A DNA stretch of 64,000 bases from Thermoplasmatales archaeon SW_10_69_26 (GTDB lineage Archaea; Thermoplasmatota; SW-10-69-26): contig PXUB01000001.1 of the NCBI GenBank assembly GCA_003009755.1, positions 32,001 through 96,000 of the forward strand, read 5' to 3'. Position 1 is the stretch's first letter, and every line of letters begins with the position of its first letter. Positions 2,825 to 11,155 of this stretch are shown piece after piece. Made by a program: the position numbers and the translations under genes. Under the pieces are notes generated by a model. The model worked only from the letters and a program-made list of their open reading frames with translations, was not told the DNA's origin and did no database searches.

Positions 2825-4060
2825 TCACCCGCTCGTGGCCCGCGGTCGGGGCCGGTCGGCCGCCAGACAGGCGCGCTCGGCGGCCTGCAGGCGGGGGGCG
2901 AGCCCGAGCGCGAGCGGGCGGGCGAGGTGGCGGCGGGCGCTGGGGTCGGCCTCGTGCCAGCGTGGGGGGCGCTTGCTGGTCTCGCCGGGCTGGCGCGTCC
3001 CGCAGCGGGGGCACCGGTAGCCGGCCTCGTGCCCGATCGAGCGCATGTGGCCCCCGCAGCCGGGACAGGCGGGCGCCTGGGTGCCCTCGGCGGGCACGTG
3101 GAACAGCTTCTCCAGGTTGACCTGGCGGCCGGCGTCCTTGAGCGATCCCAGCGCGAGCAGGCGGTCGCCGGGTTCCACGGCTCGCAAACCGGTCCGCAGG
3201 TCGCCGGTGGGCTCGAAGGCGAGCACGGTGCGCTCGGCCTCGCGGGGCGTGCGCGTGGCCAGGCGGACGTGGCCGCCCTCGAGCCGCTGGGGCTCGTCAG
3301 CGGCAACGAGCGGTTGCAGGCTGGCCGCCGCGAGGTGGTCGTCGCTGGCTTGGTTGGTGACGAAGGTATAGGCTTGCTCGATCGGTTCCTCGGCCAGGCG
3401 GGCCGCGCGGTCGGCGAGGTCGTCGGGCTCGCTGGCCCGCAGGCCGAGGAGGAGGGGGCCTGGGGTGCGGGGGGCGACGAGGGCATGGTCCTCGCGGGCG
3501 TCGTAGGCGTCGAAGACGGCCTCGTGGTGGGTGTCGAGTTCGCGGGCGTGGCGAGCGTTGATCGCTCGCGGCGTGCCCCGTGCCTTGGGGTGGCGGTAGG
3601 CGATCCGTGTGTAGGTGGCCGAGGGGCCGGGCCGCCAGGCGGCGGCGCACAGGCACCCGACCAGGCCGCGACCGGTGCCGGCGGTCCAGGTGGGCACGTC
3701 GGCGAGGGCCGAGCGGGCCTCGTCGAGGCCGACGCGTTCGCGTACGCCGCGCTCGTACCAGGCCGGGGCCGGCGGCTCGGAGAGGACGGCCAGGCCGGCG
3801 CCTTTGCCCTCGGCGATGCGGGCGTGGTCGTCGACGACGGCGGCCGCGGTCTCGAGCACCGTCTCGGGGTGGAGGTCCCTCGAGAGAGGGATCGCGACGG
3901 CGGCGTTGCCGCGCGTCTTCCAGGGGTTGTCGGGATCGAGGCGGACCAGACGCGGCCGGCCATCCAACGCGTCGGGGCCGAGCCGATCGGCGATGCAGGC
4001 GGCGGCGTAGGTGGTGCATCCCCCCTGGGGGCCGTCGGTGTCGTCCAGCGTCAACAGCAC
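2825..4060 (-). CDS. tiaS: tRNA(Ile2) 2-agmatinylcytidine synthetase
   Basis: LDDTD..GGCTTY, PRLVRL.P.NPWKTRGNAAV, TNQASDDH, FEPTG, C-terminal CPGC..CPRC Zn ribbon. Confidence 0.93.
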   Translation of the reverse strand: MLLTLDDTDGPQGGCTTYAAACIADRLGPDALDGRPRLVRLDPDNPWKTRGNAAVAIPLSRDLHPETVLETAAAVVDDHARIAEGKGAGLAVLSEPPAPAWYERGVRERVGLDEARSALADVPTWTAGTGRGLVGCLCAAAWRPGPSATYTRIAYRHPKARGTPRAINARHARELDTHHEAVFDAYDAREDHALVAPRTPGPLLLGLRASEPDDLADRAARLAEEPIEQAYTFVTNQASDDHLAAASLQPLVAADEPQRLEGGHVRLATRTPREAERTVLAFEPTGDLRTGLRAVEPGDRLLALGSLKDAGRQVNLEKLFHVPAEGTQAPACPGCGGHMRSIGHEAGYRCPRCGTRQPGETSKRPPRWHEADPSARRHLARPLALGLAPRLQAAERACLAADRPRPRATSG

Positions 4061-4064
4061 CGGA

Positions 4065-7000
4065 TCAGCCTCCGGCCACGCGGTCGACGGTGCGGGAGCC
4101 GCCGGGGTCCAGCTGGTCGAGGGCGTCGGCGAAGGCGCTTGCGTCGGGGTAGCGGTCCTCGGGGTCGCGGGCCAGGGCCTTGGCGAGGACCTCGTTGACG
4201 GCGGCGGGGACGCCGTCGATCGGGAGCCGGACGTCGCGTTCGATCAGCTCCTCGGGGGGAGGCGTGGTGTCGGTCTGCAGGCCGAGGTGGTGCTCGCCGG
4301 TGAGGAGGTTGTAGACGAGGGCGCCGGCGGCGTAGACGTCGGCTTGGGGACCGGGCGGGTCGCCGAGGAGTTGTTCGGGCGCCATGTAGCGCGGCGTGCC
4401 GACGAAGGCGTCCTCCTGTCCGGGCGGTTCGTCGCGGCGGACGGCGACGCCGAAGTCGGTGATCTTGGCGGTCCCGTCGGGGGTGAGCAGGATGTTGGAG
4501 GGCTTGAGGTCGCGGTGCACGATGCCGGCCTCGTGGAGGGCAGCCAAGCCGTCGAGCACCTCGGCGGCCATCGGCAGGGCCTGTTTGGTCTCCATCGCCT
4601 GGTCGGTGCGGTCGGCGAGCGTGCCGCCCTCGATGTACTCCATGACGAGCAGCAGCCGGCCTTCCTCCTCGATGACGTCGTGCACGACGACGACGTTGCG
4701 GTGCTGGAGGTTGGCGGCGGTCTTGGCCTCGTGCAACAGGAGCTCGCGGGCGTCGGCGCCGACGTTCTCGAGGTCCTTGAGGACGACGTCGCGCTCGAGC
4801 ACGCTGTCCTCGGCGAGGTAGGTCGTGCCGAACCCGCCCTCGCCGAGGACGCGTTCGACGCGGAAACGGTCCACCTTGCGTGGCATGAAGCCGTGGGCAA
4901 CGGTGGCGCTGCCGTCGTCGGCGGCGACCGGCGAGGCGCTGGCGGGGCTCGTGGAGAACTCGGTGGGTCCGGTCCCGGTCCCCGTCTCCTCGCGGCGGCG
5001 GTGGTACCAGATGCCACCGGCGGCGGCGAGCCCGAGCAGTACGGCCAAGCCGAGGCCGCCGGCGAGGTAGGGGTTGTCGCTGGCGGCGCGTGTGGCGAGC
5101 GTCAGGGGGCTGGGCTCGGAGATGTCGAAGGTGCGCTGGACCTCTTCGCCGCTGGCGGGCGAGACGAGCGCGCGGTCGGGGTCGGCGGTCTCGGCGACGA
5201 TGGTGCCCGTGAACGAGCGGGGGGCCTCCGGCACGAACGAGAGCATCACGGTCCGGTTGGCGGGTTCGCCGGCGCGGAGGTTGACGTCCTGGACAGCCAA
5301 GGCCTGCGAGCCCGAGCGCAACGAGAACCGCAGGGAGACGTCGCCGGGCGGGTCGTCGCCGGTGAGGGCCAACTCGATCGTGCTCGTCGTGCCGGCCTCG
5401 AGGTCGGTGTCGGTGACGGTCCACGTGACGTGGGCCGGGGCTGGTCGGACGTCCAAGGCGAGGGGGGTCGGGTCGGAGCCGACCGGCGCCATCAGGATAG
5501 CATCCGAGCGGTCCTGGTCGGCTTCGACGAACAGCTGGCCCTGTTCGCGCGGTTGGAGCACGATCTCCTCGGGGCCGCCCGGCACGACGGGGGCGTTGGG
5601 TTCGACCGTCATCGTGCGGCCGATGCCGTTGGCGACGGTGATCTCGGCCAGCGAGCCGCGCGTGAAGGACAGCTGGGCGGGCACGGTGCAGACGTCGGCG
5701 GGGCAGTCGCCGCTGAACGTGGCCACGGTCTCGTTCCGCCAGGCCTGCTCGCTGGGGGAGAGCACGGTGCGTTGGCGGGTGGCGTTCAGGTCGCCGTCGG
5801 AGACGTGCAGCGTGACGTTGTAGACGCGGGGGGCCTGGCCGGGCAGCGTAAGCCACGCGCCGGTCTGGCCGCTGTCGTCGTCGACGGACCACCAGTAGGT
5901 CAGGTCCTCGTCGTCGGGATCGCTGGTCTCGTTGGCGGTCAGGGCCAAGCGACCGTCCTCGGTGGCCCGTTGCGTGATGCTGGGTTGAGGGGGGAGGTTG
6001 ATCTCCATCGTCCGCGAGGCGGTGACCTGGGAGGAGCCGTCGTCGACGGTGAGGTGGATGGTGTGGTTGCCGGAGGTGGTGAAGCGGTGGGTGACGGTGG
6101 AGCCTCGCTTGACCGGGCCCTCGTCGAAGCGCCAGGTGTAGGTGAGCGGGGAGCGGTCCGGGTCCTGGGACCCGCGGGCGTCGAAGACGTGGCCTTCGCC
6201 CTGCTGCCACGCGACGGTGAACTGGGCTTCGGGGGGTCGGTCCTTGCCCAGCATGCGGAGCTCGCCGTCGGGGCCGGCCCAGAGGACGCCGCCACCGTCG
6301 GCGATCGCGATGCCGGTCGGGATCTGCGAGCAGCCGGAGGGGGTCAGCGTCTTCGTCCACCGGGAGTCCAGCAACCGACGGTCCTGGTGGGGGTGGCCGA
6401 CGAGGGAGCGGATGACGGCCACGCCGCGCTCGGCCGAGCAGACGTCGGCGAGGTAGATGTCGCCGTTGGCGTCGACGGCGGGTTGGCCGAGGAGGGGGCC
6501 GAACACGTTGCCCAGTGACTTGATGTGGGCGCCGCCGAGCGTGACGATGTGGATGGACCCGCCGGCGTCGACGATGAACACGGGCTGGCTGCCGTCGGCG
6601 CCCCATCCGACGGTCGGGGCCGCGTAGATCTGGCCGTCGAGCTCGGAGCCGGGCCGTTCGGCGTCGCCGGTGCGCCAGGCGACGTCCCCGCTGGCTCGGT
6701 CCACGGCGACGACCTCTTCGTCCCCCATGACGAGGGCGATCGACGAACCGGGAGCCAGGGAGACGCCGCGCGGCGTGCAGTTGCAGTCGATGCGATCCTC
6801 GACGCTGAGCGAGCCGGCGGAGAGCTCGACGATGCCGCCCTCCTGGATGGCGACGATCGTGTCGTCGTTGTCGACGGCGACCGGGGGGCCCGGCGTGGGG
6901 CCCGGCGTCGAGGAGAGGGGCGGATCGTAGTTCGTCGGCTCCTGGAGGCTGCGCTCGTCGACGATGTCCCCCTGGGTGGTGACGGCCAGCACCGTCCAGG

Positions 7001-7856
7001 GCTCCCGGACGGTGTAGATCCGGCCGTCGGGGTCGACGACGGGGCCGGAGAGCAGCTCGCGGTCGCCGTCGATCTCGGTCTGCCAGGCCTCGGCGCGTTC
7101 CGGGTTGACGCCGCGGAGCTCGCCGTCGCCGGTGGCGGCGATGACCAAGCCCTCGGGCGTCGAGGCGGGCGGGAACGGGACCGAGGATCCCAGACGCAGT
7201 GGGGGGTCCCACAGCGGGTCACCGTCGGAGGTGAACCGGTAGGCGAGCCCGCTCCAAGTGATGGCGGTCACGTTGCCGTCCTCGTCGACGATCGGGTCGT
7301 GGAACGGCTGGTCGTCGGAGGAGCGGGCCGACCATCGCACGAGGTCGACCTGCTGGGGGCCGATGTTGAGCGATCGGCCGGAGTGCTGGGCGTCGGCGCC
7401 GTGCTGGGGCCAGGCGGGGCCGAGGCCGCCGGCGACGGGCTCGTCGGCGTGGACGAAGAAGATCGTGGAGCTGGAGCCGGTGATCTCGAGCTCGGTCGCG
7501 TTGTTGCCGGTGTCGTTGCGCGCGCTGTCGACGCTCACCGAGTGCAGCCCGGGTTGGGTCTGGGAGGGCAACGGGACGTCGATCGTGCCGGTCACGAGCG
7601 AGGAGCGGTCGGAGACGAGCGTGCGCGAGATCGAGGAGGCTTGCCGGCGGTCGTCGGGGTTCTCGACGCCGACGGTCACGTTGAGCCGGTCGACCGTCGT
7701 GTTGATCGTGAGCTGGACCTCGATCGTGGCGTCGGAGGGCCCGACGACGAGGGGCGTGGCCTGCATCTCGACGACCGCGACCTCGTCGGAGGACTGGGCC
7801 GCGGCCGGAGCGGAGAACAGCGTTCCTGCGGCCAAGAGGGCGAGGACCAACGTCAA
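4065..7856 (-). CDS. Membrane-anchored Hanks-type Ser/Thr kinase with extracellular PQQ-like beta-propeller and PKD/Ig domains
   Basis: Signal peptide; WPQHGADAQHSG propeller start; PKD FDARGSQDPD..YTWRF; TM helix then RRR; kinase GEGGFG, HRDLKPSN, DFG, GTPRYMAPE; start uncertain. Confidence 0.92.
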   Translation of the reverse strand: MTLVLALLAAGTLFSAPAAAQSSDEVAVVEMQATPLVVGPSDATIEVQLTINTTVDRLNVTVGVENPDDRRQASSISRTLVSDRSSLVTGTIDVPLPSQTQPGLHSVSVDSARNDTGNNATELEITGSSSTIFFVHADEPVAGGLGPAWPQHGADAQHSGRSLNIGPQQVDLVRWSARSSDDQPFHDPIVDEDGNVTAITWSGLAYRFTSDGDPLWDPPLRLGSSVPFPPASTPEGLVIAATGDGELRGVNPERAEAWQTEIDGDRELLSGPVVDPDGRIYTVREPWTVLAVTTQGDIVDERSLQEPTNYDPPLSSTPGPTPGPPVAVDNDDTIVAIQEGGIVELSAGSLSVEDRIDCNCTPRGVSLAPGSSIALVMGDEEVVAVDRASGDVAWRTGDAERPGSELDGQIYAAPTVGWGADGSQPVFIVDAGGSIHIVTLGGAHIKSLGNVFGPLLGQPAVDANGDIYLADVCSAERGVAVIRSLVGHPHQDRRLLDSRWTKTLTPSGCSQIPTGIAIADGGGVLWAGPDGELRMLGKDRPPEAQFTVAWQQGEGHVFDARGSQDPDRSPLTYTWRFDEGPVKRGSTVTHRFTTSGNHTIHLTVDDGSSQVTASRTMEINLPPQPSITQRATEDGRLALTANETSDPDDEDLTYWWSVDDDSGQTGAWLTLPGQAPRVYNVTLHVSDGDLNATRQRTVLSPSEQAWRNETVATFSGDCPADVCTVPAQLSFTRGSLAEITVANGIGRTMTVEPNAPVVPGGPEEIVLQPREQGQLFVEADQDRSDAILMAPVGSDPTPLALDVRPAPAHVTWTVTDTDLEAGTTSTIELALTGDDPPGDVSLRFSLRSGSQALAVQDVNLRAGEPANRTVMLSFVPEAPRSFTGTIVAETADPDRALVSPASGEEVQRTFDISEPSPLTLATRAASDNPYLAGGLGLAVLLGLAAAGGIWYHRRREETGTGTGPTEFSTSPASASPVAADDGSATVAHGFMPRKVDRFRVERVLGEGGFGTTYLAEDSVLERDVVLKDLENVGADARELLLHEAKTAANLQHRNVVVVHDVIEEEGRLLLVMEYIEGGTLADRTDQAMETKQALPMAAEVLDGLAALHEAGIVHRDLKPSNILLTPDGTAKITDFGVAVRRDEPPGQEDAFVGTPRYMAPEQLLGDPPGPQADVYAAGALVYNLLTGEHHLGLQTDTTPPPEELIERDVRLPIDGVPAAVNEVLAKALARDPEDRYPDASAFADALDQLDPGGSRTVDRVAGG

Positions 7857-7995
7857 GGTCGCCGCGCCGTGGCGAGCTCGTGCGCGCGGGTGCAGGATGG
7901 CTGTGCCCCTCCCAAGCCCATTCCGACGGGGAGGACGTAACGTTTGCGGTCCCGGCCTCCGGCTCTCGGGGCCTCAGGGGGCCCGCAGGGGCTCA

Positions 7996-8312
7996 GCCGT
8001 GGGAGAGGGAAGGGATGACCCGGCCCCACGACGGGACCCGCTGCCGGCACCCAGGCGAGCGCGAGCTCCCCAGGCCCCGGCAGCGGGGGGATGCACACTG
8101 TGCGTATCGTCGATGGGATGTGGGATGGGACGGGTCGGGAGCCGGGTGGGCTTGGTGCCCACCGCCGCGATGGGCGTGTTGTATTTCAAAGCCGTGAAAG
8201 CTGACGAGAGGGAACGCCAACAGCCGGTTGCACGGTCTTCGGACGTTCAGATCGGACGTTTCCGTCGACACGGGAACCCCGTTCCAAGCGACGTCCTTCA
8301 CGACGTAGCCCC
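7996..8312. repeat. Intergenic tandem repeat copy 1 (promoter plus putative sRNA unit)
   Basis: Aligns with 8417-8678 (offset 367 over the core); copy 1 carries an extra ~50-bp hairpin at 8037-8088. Confidence 0.9.
8000..8160 (-). ncRNA. Putative structured small RNA 1
   Basis: TTTGAAAT at -30, AT at -11/-10, T/G start; 5' hairpin, 14-bp closing stem, C-rich loop, pyrimidine-rich 3' end; no conserved ORF. Confidence 0.5.
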
Positions 8313-8416
8313 CGACGACCGCGGGTCGATCGAGGGACGAGCTGCGACGCTGACGCCGGCGAGGAGCGGGAGCAAGCGCCTCCAGCTCCCCGACGAGAGG
8401 GGAACCTGCAAGCGTG

Positions 8417-8678
8417 GCCGTGAGAGGAGAAGGATGGCCCGGCCCCACGACGCGGAGGGATGCACTGTGCGTACCGTCGATGGGATGTGGGATGGGACGG
8501 GCCGGGAGCCGGGTGGGCTTGGTGCCCACCCCCGCGATGAGGGTGTTGTATTTCAAAGCCGTGAAAGCTGACAGCAGGATACGCCAACCGCCGGTTGCAA
8601 GGCTTGTCGACGTTCAGACGCGGCGTTTCCGCTGACAAGCGAACCCCGTTCCAGGCGGCCTCCTTGACGATGTAACCC
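8417..8678. repeat. Intergenic tandem repeat copy 2
   Basis: Near-identical core to 8089-8205, more diverged flanks. Confidence 0.9.
8421..8527 (-). ncRNA. Putative structured small RNA 2 (paralog)
   Basis: Same promoter spacing and predicted fold; A-U to G-U change keeps the stem. Confidence 0.5.
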
Positions 8679-8874
8679 GGCTCAGCGGTGGGCCCATCTT
8701 CCACTCCGAGCGGTGGATCGCAGCCCGGGCACCGCCGATGCAAGGCGAGGTGGTTGGGGTCGCAGCGGGCCACGAAGCGGGCGAGCCACGCCCGTGGTTG
8801 CCCGATGCAGCTGCTCGTGAGGCTAGGCTATCGTCCATCGCTTCCGGGGCCTCTCCCCAGCCGACGAGGGGCCC

Positions 8875-9639
8875 TCAGGGGTTCCGGAAGAGGAGCAACG
8901 AGCGCCCGACGCCGATCACGTCGCCGTGGGTGAGCTCGACCTCGTCGCCGCCGCGCAGCTCCTGGTCCCAGTTGACGATGGTGCCGTTGAGGCTCTCGGC
9001 GTCGCGCAGGCGGAACGTGCCGCCTTCGTGGGTGAGGACGGCGTGCTTGCGCGAGATGAACAGGTCGTACTCGAGGGGGACGTCGACCTCCTCGCCGCCC
9101 ACCTGGCGTTCGCGGCCGACCAGCCACTCCATCGGTTCGGCCTTGCTCCGCAACGGGAACACGCGGCCCTCGCGGATCCCGCGGATGAGGATGAGCTGGG
9201 CGAGCGCGTCCTCGGTCTCGGGGGTCTCGGGCTCGGATTGCTGGACGCGCGTGCGGTCGGGCACGCCGCCGGCGGCGGACTCCATGGCGAGGTTGCCCAG
9301 CGTGCGGACCTCCTCGAGCACCATGAACAGGTGGTCCTCGCGGGCGTAGTACTCCTTCGTGTGGCTGCCTTCGCCCTGGGCGACGCGGGTCTCGACGAGG
9401 TCGACCTCCTCGAGCTTGTCGATGTGGCTGAGGATCGCTTGACGGGTGAGGGGGATCTCGCGGGTGTCGCTCTCGGCGTCCTTGGACGTCTCCTCGCGGT
9501 AGGCCTCGATCTCGCCCACGTTCTTCGGTGTGGTGAGCTGGCGGAGGATGTCGAGGCGTTGGCGGTTGCCGAGCGCGGAGAGGACCAGGGACAGGCGCTC
9601 GGTGTCCACCTTGCCACCGGGGGATTGGGGATCCGGCAT
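8875..9639 (-). CDS. ArsR-like winged-HTH plus FHA domain regulator
   Basis: LSALGNRQRLDILRQL and RQAILSHIDKLEEVDLV HTH; FHA VGRE, ISRKHA, SLNGT. Confidence 0.9.
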   Translation of the reverse strand: MPDPQSPGGKVDTERLSLVLSALGNRQRLDILRQLTTPKNVGEIEAYREETSKDAESDTREIPLTRQAILSHIDKLEEVDLVETRVAQGEGSHTKEYYAREDHLFMVLEEVRTLGNLAMESAAGGVPDRTRVQQSEPETPETEDALAQLILIRGIREGRVFPLRSKAEPMEWLVGRERQVGGEEVDVPLEYDLFISRKHAVLTHEGGTFRLRDAESLNGTIVNWDQELRGGDEVELTHGDVIGVGRSLLLFRNP

Positions 9640-10111
9640 CGCGCTGGCAAGGGGACAGGGAGGGTTTCGGTGTTTCGGGTGGGTACGGGGTGGACCGAAC
9701 AGATGGCGGACCGCTCTCGGACCTGGGAACCGCCGGTCCCCGTGATGGTCTCTCCCGACGCAAGGGGGAGACTGACCGCGAGGGAGACATGCTAGATCTG
9801 CGGTGGGACCGACGAACGGCGAACGATGGAGACCGCCCGCGGGACCGCAACCGTCGGACGTTGACCGTGTGCGAGGCCTGCCTGGGCCAGCGCACCGCCA
9901 AGCGCTGGCACGCCGACGGCAGCAAGAGCTATCGGTGGGCCGAAGCTTCGACCGAGACACCGCACGCGCATCCGCAGGATCGCTACGCCTACCTGGCGGA
10001 CGCCGATGAAGTGAGCCTGGTCCGTCTCCAGCAGGCCTGGATCGACACGCACGCCGCCACGGCCTCGCGCCGGAACGAACGAGTTAACCGACCCCTTCCG
10101 TCTGGGCCGGC

Positions 10112-11155
10112 GTGGACGGCTCTCGCCGCTGGTGGTGGCCGGCCATGGCCCTGCTGGCGCTCGGGCTCGTGGCTGGGACCGTCACCGCTCACGTCGAGTA
10201 CGTGGCCTCCGAGGGCGACCCCGTCGGCCCCCTGGACCTGTGGGGAGCCGTGGCCTCGGACCCGCTGGGCCTCACCCTGATCGCCACCACGGTCGTCGCC
10301 GCCGCGGCGGCCGGGTTCGCGTGGCGCCGGTGGGGCGAGCGGATCCCCGACGTGGACGTGCTGCGCGAGGTGCTCGACGGCTACGAGGACCTCGTCCCCT
10401 GGATGATCCGCCTCAGCGTCGGCGTTCCCCTCGTCGGTGCGGGCTTCTCCGGGTACCTGTTGACGCCGGCGTTGCCCGTCGAGCTGCGCCTGCTGCAGGT
10501 CCTCGTCGGGTTCCTGCTGCTCCTGGGCCTGACCACGCGAGGCGCCGCCCTGCTGGGCCTGGTGGGCTGGTTGTCGGTCTTCGGCGTTTACGGTCCCACG
10601 CTGTTCTTGGCCGGCGAGTACACCGGCGCGTTCATCGCGTTGATCCTCGTCGGGCCCGGCCGGCCGAGCCTCGACCACATGCTCGAGCAGGTGGCCGAGG
10701 ACGAGGGCACCTGGTACCATCGGGTCGATCCCATCCACGAGGCCGGCGAGCGGTTCCGGGCCTTCGTCGCGCCGGCACGCCCGTGGGCGCCGGTGGCGGT
10801 CCGCTTGACGTTGGGTGCCACGCTGGCTTACCTCGGCATCTGGGAGAAGATCCTCGACCCGGGGCCCGCGATCGCGTTGGCCCGCGATCTGGGCCTGCCC
10901 GGCTCGATCTCGGCCGAGGCCTGGGTCGTGGGCGCCGGGCTCGTCGAGCTCGGCGTCGGCCTGCTGCTCGTGGCGGGGCTGTTCACGCGCGCCGCGAGCG
11001 CGGCCGCCTTCCTCGTGCTGACGGTCACCTTGTTCGCGTTGCCCAACGACCCCGTGCTGGCGCACGTTTCCCTGTTCGGGCTCGCCAGCGTCGTCTTCAC
11101 GTGGGGCGTCGGTCCCCTCAGCCTCGACCGGTCCATGCAGACGGGTGATGGCTGA
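10112..11155 (+). CDS. DoxX-family membrane protein (haloarchaeal double-DoxX type)
   Basis: WMIRLSVGVPLVGAGFSGY, GPGRPSLD, EKILDPG, DPVLAHVSLFGLAS; TTAA about 27 nt upstream. Confidence 0.8.
   Translation: MDGSRRWWWPAMALLALGLVAGTVTAHVEYVASEGDPVGPLDLWGAVASDPLGLTLIATTVVAAAAAGFAWRRWGERIPDVDVLREVLDGYEDLVPWMIRLSVGVPLVGAGFSGYLLTPALPVELRLLQVLVGFLLLLGLTTRGAALLGLVGWLSVFGVYGPTLFLAGEYTGAFIALILVGPGRPSLDHMLEQVAEDEGTWYHRVDPIHEAGERFRAFVAPARPWAPVAVRLTLGATLAYLGIWEKILDPGPAIALARDLGLPGSISAEAWVVGAGLVELGVGLLLVAGLFTRAASAAAFLVLTVTLFALPNDPVLAHVSLFGLASVVFTWGVGPLSLDRSMQTGDG

Follow-up and report, generated by a model that had tools for sequence, protein, structure and literature searches.

What kind of regulation is encoded at an archaeal locus where the genes for a predicted membrane receptor kinase and for a putative DNA-binding protein with an FHA domain flank two direct repeats, and what are the repeats themselves? 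The question is raised by a stretch of 64,000 nucleotides (hereafter the window; contig PXUB01000001.1, positions 32,001 to 96,000) from the metagenome-assembled genome (MAG) of Thermoplasmatales archaeon SW_10_69_26, an uncultured salt-loving organism from a lineage of halite and salt-lake archaea. The genome, labelled G000, comprises 2.8 Mb with a G+C content of about 70%. On the minus strand the locus consists of a gene for a winged helix-turn-helix (wHTH) regulator with an FHA domain (8875–9639), the two direct repeats, a gene for a Hanks Ser/Thr kinase (4065–7856) and a TiaS gene, both repeats lying in the 1,018-nt intergenic region between the wHTH-FHA and kinase genes. An earlier reading of the letters alone (below, the sequence-only reading) had proposed four co-oriented minus-strand units, namely the regulator gene, two repeat units and the kinase gene, and all four are present in the claimed order according to open reading frames (ORFs), repeat alignment and Pfam. 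We propose that the locus encodes a kinase/wHTH-FHA signalling cassette resembling PknH/EmbR, joined by a kinase-linked small RNA gene that is tandemly duplicated here; to this interpretation as a whole we assign a probability of about one half.

Kinase and wHTH-FHA genes as adjacent pairs

The class comparison set consisted of 21 species genomes, comprising the six genomes and four genera of the family (G000–G005) and 15 genomes from other families; a further 180 genomes were sampled from the phylum outside the class. The two protein-coding genes in question are listed below with the evidence used.

4065..7856, minus strand: receptor-type Hanks Ser/Thr kinase of 1,263 amino acids (ORF, Pfam, motifs read from the translation)
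8875..9639, minus strand: wHTH-FHA regulator of 254 amino acids (Pfam, NCBIfam, PDB profile search, AlphaFold2 (AF2), Foldseek)

The adjacency of kinase and wHTH-FHA genes is the rule in this small class of Thermoplasmatota, and the locus is one of several paralogous cassettes. Pairing was counted between 150 listed of 156 kinase matches (E <= 1e-10) and 139 HTH-FHA matches in the 21 genomes, with distances running between matched stretches on one contig. An HTH-FHA match lies at most 4 kb from 92 of the 150 listed kinase matches and at most 500 nt from 59 of them, and a kinase lies at most 4 kb from 92 of the 139 HTH-FHA matches; these counts are lower bounds because many contigs are short, and the related genomes are not independent of one another. 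The pair studied here, with 4,016 nt between the matched stretches, falls just outside the 4-kb threshold. Pair orientations in the class are 44 convergent, 21 with the kinase first, 19 with the regulator first and 8 divergent. All five Pkinase genes above the cut-off in G000 adjoin an HTH-FHA paralogue, in geometries that range from co-oriented with a 1-kb spacer (this locus) through a distance of 6 nt (contig 13) to convergent (contigs 19 and 43) and divergent (contig 12). The other four kinases carry a C-terminal kinase domain behind 380–550 residues without a Pfam match. On contig 13 (G000:C13:5521-6956) the kinase-domain and HTH-FHA matches are on one strand with a single TGA in the 6 nt between them, which amounts to a near-fusion.

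The regulator profile detects 1–16 paralogues in each of the 21 class genomes (7 in G000), and the six best matches, one per family genome, are clearly set apart as orthologues (E 7e-165 to 2e-134; the next match 3e-38). Outside the class the HTH-FHA family was met in 2 of the 180 sampled phylum genomes; G078 and G190, both outside the class and each of about 2.9 Mb, hold 5–8 wHTH-FHA members. Databases name these proteins by automatic annotation only, and no description of winged-helix–FHA regulators in Thermoplasmatota, or of their pairing with kinases, was found in the literature searched, most subscription journals being outside its coverage. As the class inherits kinases and wHTH-FHA regulators as adjacent, multiplied pairs, the specificity of a kinase for its regulator can be tested pair by pair, as in two-component systems.

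Hanks kinases share a set of motifs comprising a Gly-rich loop, the VAIK lysine, HRD, DFG and APE. In the kinase of the window, a Pkinase domain (PF00069, 164.1 bits against a cut-off of 31.7) occupies the C-terminal residues 999–1235, and GEGGFG, VVLK, HRDLKPSN, DFG and APE are all present and invariant across four orthologues. The ectodomain contains a PQQ_2 propeller-like stretch (residues 175–396) and two PKD stretches (around residues 543–619), its remainder being without domain assignment. Two hydrophobic segments, judged from the translation alone, flank these domains: the signal-like segment MTLVLALLAAGTLFSAPAAAQ at the N-terminus and LAGGLGLAVLLGLAAAGGIWY at about residues 931–951, the latter followed by HRRRE ahead of the kinase domain. 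The predicted layout is thus an N-terminal sensor outside and a kinase domain inside the cell. A kinase with propeller/PKD domains, a transmembrane helix and intact catalytic motifs had been announced by the sequence-only reading, and Pfam bears out the domains, with the hydrophobic segment and the motifs read from the translation. G+C at third codon positions (GC3) is 0.95, and full-length orthologues occur in G001, G003 and G002 at 40–42% identity; that of G002 has 1,259 amino acids and is 42% identical across 1,215 residues. Immediately before the kinase domain four of four orthologues carry the juxtamembrane motif TVAxxFMPRK(V/I)(D/E)RF with an invariant Thr (about 4893–4925, residues 978–988). 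The first in-frame start of the kinase gene is TTG at 7856. An ATG at 7919–7921, 16 nt past the promoter-like motif of the kinase gene described below, is out of frame here and followed by a stop after 22 codons; its homologue is in frame in G001, and G002 has no canonical start ahead of the signal-like segment. The kinase may begin elsewhere than at TTG 7856, or the assembly may carry a frameshift.

The regulator consists of a probable ArsR-like winged helix (about residues 13–100), a long helix (101–122), a disordered linker (118–142) and an FHA domain (about 145–252). The FHA domain is recognised clearly (PF00498, 50.2 bits against a cut-off of 20.7). Its phosphothreonine-binding residues are intact, with G175-R176, S196-x-x-H199 and N218-G219 present as had been read from the translation, and a 30-member family alignment shows G175, R176, S196, N218, G219 and T220 to be invariant. 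At position H199 the six orthologues keep S-R-K-H, and most of the 24 paralogues have S-x-E-N. The AF2 model of the regulator (mean pLDDT 80) places helices at 13–23, 26–34 and 66–78 and a strand pair at 82–99, and its Foldseek search retrieves the FHA domains of the kinase substrates GarA/OdhI at E 7e-9 and that of EmbR at ranks 20 and 35. The N-terminal half is ArsR-like and weakly recognised, with every profile score under its cut-off (HTH_20 19.4 bits against 27; NCBIfam ArsR/SmtB 23 bits against 55); a PDB profile search points to PH1932 (E 0.0086). Among the family members, several have a PF12840 (HTH_20) match in precomputed annotation, and the JGI labels some ArsR family regulator. No Trans_reg_C or BTAD match appeared in Pfam at E <= 0.01. 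Membership in the EmbR/SARP family was rejected, as the regulator has no OmpR-type or BTA domain and only the FHA part aligns, and so was membership in the ArnA family, as the N-terminal domain has no Cys/His cluster and the PDB match to ArnA (E 0.1) covers the FHA part only.

In the mechanism that we envisage, a ligand would bind the extracellular propeller/PKD part of the kinase, and the cytoplasmic kinase domain would autophosphorylate on threonine, the invariant Thr of TVAxxFMPRK being the candidate site. The FHA domain of the regulator would dock on the kinase phosphothreonine, whereupon the regulator would itself be phosphorylated and would change its DNA binding. Docking through the FHA domain is proposed because PknH/EmbR and ST1565/ST0829 (ArnA) work in this way. 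A complex prediction for the cytoplasmic part of the kinase with the FHA domain gave a score of 0.00 in two runs made without controls.

The repeated element and its place at the kinase gene

The features of the intergenic region are given below, followed by their conservation.

7963..8696, minus strand: tandem duplication (approximate limits) of two units of about 367 nt, each with an upstream region, a putative promoter and a predicted RNA
8001..8161, minus strand: predicted RNA copy 1, kinase-proximal (covariance model 112.8 bits; minimum free energy -88 kcal/mol; z -3.95 and -4.48)
8160–8147, 8147–8134 and 8130–8112, minus strand: P1, the 5' strand of P2 and the C-rich loop of copy 1
about 8090–8040, 8032–8018 and 8017–8001, minus strand: extra long hairpin, the 3' strand of P2 and the pyrimidine tail of copy 1
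8181..8193, minus strand: TATA-like box GGCTTTGAAATAC of copy 1 (pattern count in the genome)
8420..8528, minus strand: predicted RNA copy 2, FHA-proximal (covariance model 80.7 bits; z -2.34)
8548..8560, minus strand: TATA-like box GGCTTTGAAATAC of copy 2 (sequence and pattern count)
7938..7946, minus strand: promoter-like motif CAAACGTTA, probably the TFB-recognition element (BRE)/TATA of the kinase gene (pattern count, conservation)

The two repeat units seen between the genes are confirmed by alignment: a core of 216 nt (8096–8311 and 8463–8678) is 86% identical, with a start-to-start period of 367 nt, and a second block common to both units follows downstream of each core (8003–8033 and 8422–8452). 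A contig of another study (X3, record 12) covers 8176–8504 and so reaches from unit 1 across the spacer into unit 2. As this independent contig bridges both units, the tandem arrangement is no assembly artefact of the MAG and the duplication is real. An X3 contig end at 8214, from another halite sample, holds sequence that corresponds to the part of the unit next to the promoter but has diverged from it, which suggests a related strain with a copy of its own.

Both BLAST and a covariance model find only these two copies in the 2.8 Mb of G000. A three-copy covariance model retrieves, in addition to the two local copies, one copy each in G001, G004, G003 and G002, and one in G005 in a small search (E 0.0037); the rebuilt model (R2) recovers all seven. 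Elsewhere the best E values of the R2 model are 0.13–0.77, at additional sites of G003 and G005 and at a single site in each of G008 and G018, two of the 15 genomes from other families; no convincing copy was found outside the family. A scan with a degenerate DNA pattern revealed no further copies, a scan of genome contigs returned only 3 already known relatives, and of the 253 pattern stretches in a metagenome scan based on the FHA profile none was confirmed. One pattern match with a single mismatch, in G002:C121, was dropped as chance since it lies inside a coding ORF. The element is therefore present in six of six family genomes, and all relatives have a single copy; what had been described as twin units is indeed a pair of tandem copies here, and the twinning is specific to the lineage of this genome.

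The linkage expected by the sequence-only reading is conserved in the relatives, where the order FHA gene, element, kinase gene recurs in G001, G003 and G004. In G005 the FHA gene is followed by the element and the contig ends before any kinase. The G002 element is on contig 11, where the orthologous kinase gene follows it immediately, and it is complete with the box, the fold and the CACAAAGGTTAGG motif. Since it remains at the kinase gene there although the FHA orthologue is elsewhere, the tie of the element is to the kinase. Judged from this gene order, the element belongs with the kinase gene and stands upstream of the orthologous kinase wherever a contig reaches that far.

Promoter signals were derived from the regions upstream of 1,124 ORF starts of G000, whose placement was limited by an in-frame stop close by and by the G+C content of the codon positions. 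These regions show an excess of A at -35/-34 and, from -30 to -25, of T followed by A, a pattern that in its sequence is that of leaderless archaeal genes; enriched words include TTCAA, TCAAA, TTCAT, GTTAA and CAAAC. The position weight matrix built from them was too weak to score sites, so word enrichment and exact-pattern counts were used. The pattern CYTTSAWATA occurs at only five sites on both strands of the 2.8 Mb, two of which are the repeat units; two others lie 19–22 nt before start codons (ORFs of 417 and 646 amino acids) and one is without an ORF. In seven of seven copies the box precedes a conserved GGGC by 21–22 nt, across a spacer of variable sequence, and some conservation extends over about 100 nt on the upstream side of the box. 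On this spacing minus-strand transcripts are predicted to start near 8161 and 8528. A second promoter-like motif, CAAACGTTA, lies between unit 1 and the kinase start and is kept in all relatives as C(A/G)CAAAGGTTAGG or CGCAAGGTTAA, which indicates that the kinase gene probably has its own promoter. The corresponding pattern CAAA[CG]GTTA has 10 genomic sites on both strands, and seven of the nine others lie about 27–105 nt ahead of a coding-like ORF start.

RNA gene, leader or DNA signal

The predicted C-rich RNA of about 110–160 nt has a conserved fold. Folded one by one, the seven copies from six genomes give a single long stem, P2, a 14-bp closing stem formed by ACCCGGCUCCCGAC with GUCG(U/C)GGGGCCGGGU. 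Inside it lie the stretch (C)AUCCCAUCCCA, which is unpaired, a GUGCA motif, and inner hairpins of varying sequence, length and number; copy 2 of the locus shares P1, P2 and the C-rich loop with copy 1 and is without the long inner hairpin. P1, a 5' hairpin (GGGC, loop, GCCC), forms in five copies of three genera. The fold ends in a pyrimidine tail, ahead of which G003 and G005 have an additional GC hairpin. The sense strands are more stable than dinucleotide shuffles in seven of seven copies (z -2.2 to -4.5, with 0–2 of 150 shuffles as good), and the antisense strands are no better than shuffles in six of the seven. With a TATA-like box typical of the lineage, fixed spacing and strand-specific fold stability, the view of the repeats as non-coding transcription units, which the sequence-only reading had taken, gains support. 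They match no catalogued RNA: Rfam gave no match at the gathering score in the 64-kb window and, at E <= 10 over 7800–8950, only a chance-level miRNA match of 15 bits, and a tRNA/tmRNA search returned nothing.

In the interpretation that we favour, each repeat would carry a strong TATA-like promoter that drives, from about 21 nt downstream, a structured C-rich RNA of about 110–160 nt, and this RNA gene would belong to the pathway of the kinase. The RNA would most likely act through its C-rich loop, by base pairing with G-rich targets, for example at ribosome-binding sites or in start regions; the 5' region of the kinase mRNA is one candidate. A perfect complement of AUCCCAUCCCA is absent from the genome; 35 sites come within one mismatch of it. 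Two of these are accounted for by the units and a few others coincide with start codons, a signal too weak to claim targets.

Several observations weigh against this interpretation. Public sequencing runs that contain DNA of the locus are halite metagenomes from three studies and none is of RNA, which makes transcription, transcript ends and strand predictions. The promoter consensus comes from crude ORF calls and its weight matrix is weak. No oligo-U terminator follows the RNA, so that the placing of its 3' end is guesswork. G003 and G005 do not form P1, and the antisense strand of G003 folds as well as the sense strand (z -3.35). The pair counts were made on a model-fitted alignment of seven copies from six related genomes: standard pairs fill 97.5% of 119 pair cells, against 33–52% with a slid partner column, and four one-sided changes all keep pairing via G-U, one of them being the sole P2 difference between the local copies, yet compensatory double changes occur in none of the 18 pairs. 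As the stems are nearly invariant, conservation of the DNA sequence explains them equally well. The fold thus appears conserved and strand-specific, with covariation lacking as proof. As regards the regulator, the G002 FHA orthologue lies on contig 42, adjoined directly by a different gene. The dyads noted upstream of the repeats exist as inverted repeats, only 6–7 nt long, different in the two units and at most partly conserved in relatives; they were rejected as operators, and nothing ties the HTH-FHA protein to the element. The best that can be said for the kinase 5' region as a target is a predicted loop interaction of -30.3 kcal/mol (mean -20.4), rank 25 among 1,124 start regions, which is too weak. 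Finally, G000 also encodes two-component systems of the classical kind, with 16 response regulators and, above the cut-off, about 20 HATPase_c matches, so kinase/wHTH-FHA cassettes are not its sole sensors and supplement that system rather than replace it. The RNA is well supported as a conserved element and is a candidate as a transcript, and the circuit drawn by the sequence-only reading is to be taken as a hypothesis.

A serious alternative, to which we nevertheless lean less, is that the unit serves the kinase mRNA as its 5' leader and works in cis, as a regulatory element or attenuator, instead of being an independent small RNA; promoter and leader would then have been duplicated in tandem here. 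Transcription would start at the strong box, and the C-rich fold with its pyrimidine tract would gate transcription or translation into the kinase gene. Such an arrangement would account for the position of the element, which in every case shares the strand of the orthologous kinase gene and lies immediately before it, even where the FHA gene has moved; a stem followed by a pyrimidine-rich tract recalls a terminator or attenuator, and the interaction energy given above is that of the C-rich loop with a G-rich region just upstream of the kinase start. The CAAA[CG]GTTA promoter-type motif conserved between element and kinase start in all genomes, however, points to a separate kinase transcript. 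The distance from the element to the kinase start, about 100 to 300 nt, is poorly conserved as well, and copy 2 precedes another promoter and RNA, not a gene.

We consider it improbable that conservation acts at the level of DNA only, the region serving as operators and promoter of the kinase gene or as a plus-strand G-quadruplex, with no functional RNA. The absence of double changes in all 18 stem pairs is what is expected if the sequence itself is read, and the partial conservation of about 100 nt upstream of the box points in the same direction. The plus strand of the conserved block, which would be the template strand, also contains a G-quadruplex-type run (8111–8160, eight GGG tracts with loops of 1–4 nt). 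Conservation of DNA alone would nonetheless leave unexplained why fold stability beyond shuffles is strand-specific, the sense strand being better in six of seven copies, and why the one-sided changes all pair via G-U, which works only in the sense RNA. In addition, the inner hairpins differ in sequence and length, each inside a fixed closing stem, and the conserved part begins 21–22 nt from the TATA-like box, where a transcript would start. If the RNA were only a leader or a DNA operator, the finding would shrink to a well-conserved upstream region of one kinase gene.

Far less credible is a small leaderless protein encoded by each unit from the GTG at the predicted transcription start (MGTKPTRLPTRPIPHP...). 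Both copies have this GTG, like the leaderless genes of G000, and G003 and G005 have ATG-GGC-AAG at the equivalent place; the frame so opened (MGTKPTRLPTRP...) nevertheless runs into a stop in G004, where codon 4 is TAG. The most conserved block contains a 2-nt indel between genera and a 4-nt indel separates G003 from G005, both in the region of the frame, and the peptides downstream are unrelated. Four of the five inter-copy differences in the first 30 codons alter the residue, ORFs across the repeats have a GC3 of 0.63–0.74 against 0.92–0.95 in the flanking genes, and none has a Pfam match. On the indels, the stop codon, GC3 and the lack of Pfam matches, small ORFs over the repeats were rejected, and the repeats are non-coding. 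Remnants of a mobile element such as a miniature inverted-repeat transposable element (MITE), or a functionless chance duplication, could produce a direct tandem repeat in an intergenic region, and this explanation is just as hard to credit given only two genomic copies, both at one locus, synteny in six of six family genomes of four genera, and no terminal inverted repeats found.

Some features of the surroundings may be added. The TiaS gene (2825–4060, three Pfam TiaS domains) is on the same strand and starts 4 nt past the kinase stop. It is followed by an ORF from 1384 to about 2800 whose C-terminal part resembles what we take, from its motifs, to be SRP54. The kinase gene may head a longer transcription unit. 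A plus-strand ORF at 9690–10280, divergent from the HTH-FHA gene, contains a CEACLGQ stretch, has a GC3 of only 0.76 and is probably no gene; to the 470 nt upstream of the HTH-FHA start nothing else could be assigned.

Comparison with known kinase and RNA systems

To our knowledge, what has been learned of Hanks-kinase signalling in archaea comes almost entirely from Sulfolobales, where the FHA protein ArnA works with kinases whose genes lie elsewhere. The view of the sequence-only reading that no archaeal system of this layout had been described has to be revised in the light of precedents, ST0829/ArnA in Sulfolobales (PMC5007285) and, outside the archaea, PknH/EmbR (PMC4601284). In Sulfolobales the FHA-bearing DNA-binding regulator ST0829/ArnA is served by the Hanks kinase ST1565 (PMC5007285), and the kinases ArnC and ArnD are described with ArnA-ArnB (PMC6509490, PMC10470591). 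In M. tuberculosis the FHA domain is needed for phosphorylation of EmbR by PknH, and phosphorylation alters promoter binding (PMC4601284).

The closest likeness is to PknH/EmbR, which unites a membrane receptor Hanks kinase with a transcription factor of winged helix and C-terminal FHA domain (PMC4601284), as is predicted for the pair here, and the FHA domain of the regulator model aligns structurally with that of EmbR, as the Foldseek ranks indicate. In EmbR the winged helix is of OmpR type and is joined by a BTA domain, whereas the regulator here has a probable ArsR-like winged helix followed by a long helix and no BTA domain. The kinase is predicted to be of reverse topology compared with PknH, with an N-terminal sensor and a C-terminal kinase domain, and the pair, unlike PknH/EmbR, is multiplied into many paralogous cassettes per genome. 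As described in the accessible part of PMC4601284, PknH/EmbR includes no RNA gene, and here a candidate RNA gene is present. With ArnA/ST0829 the locus shares an archaeal Hanks kinase that here would, by analogy, act on an FHA protein; in Sulfolobales that protein binds or represses promoters in a phosphorylation-dependent manner (PMC5007285). ArnA/ST0829 differs in having a zinc finger instead of a winged helix and in its partner, the von Willebrand factor type A (vWA) protein ArnB. Adjacency to a kinase gene is not described for the Arn system in the accessible part of PMC5007285, in contrast to the adjacent pairs found here.

Two-component systems offer a further parallel, as they place a membrane sensor kinase gene beside the gene of a DNA-binding partner, the arrangement predicted here, and are likewise multiplied as paralogous pairs. 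They differ in their protein families, and the phosphorylation here would be on Ser/Thr and would be read by an FHA domain. That the cassettes are a Ser/Thr counterpart of two-component signalling, every receptor kinase having a wHTH-FHA 'response regulator' to itself and one of the cassettes being equipped with a small RNA as a third, kinase-linked component, is a speculative extension that we put forward with considerable doubt.

There are trans-acting small RNAs that expose C-rich loops and use them to pair with ribosome-binding sites rich in G. The predicted RNA resembles them as a short structured molecule with its own putative promoter and invariant C-rich motifs that are predicted to be single-stranded. 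It differs from them in having no sequence or Rfam relation to them, an archaeal host and a fixed linkage to a kinase gene. If the proposed circuit is true, the RNA would act either directly, as the regulatory output of the cassette, or by feedback on kinase synthesis, the duplication would double its dose, and the circuit of kinase, FHA regulator and small RNA would be the first described in archaea. The conserved RNA is a candidate new RNA family with a clear genetic partner and an entry to small-RNA regulation in an uncultured lineage. Set against the known systems, the principle of a kinase with an FHA regulator is an established one, and what is new is the fusion of the FHA domain to a probable ArsR-type winged helix, the class-wide adjacency of multiplied pairs, and the candidate RNA linked to the kinase gene.

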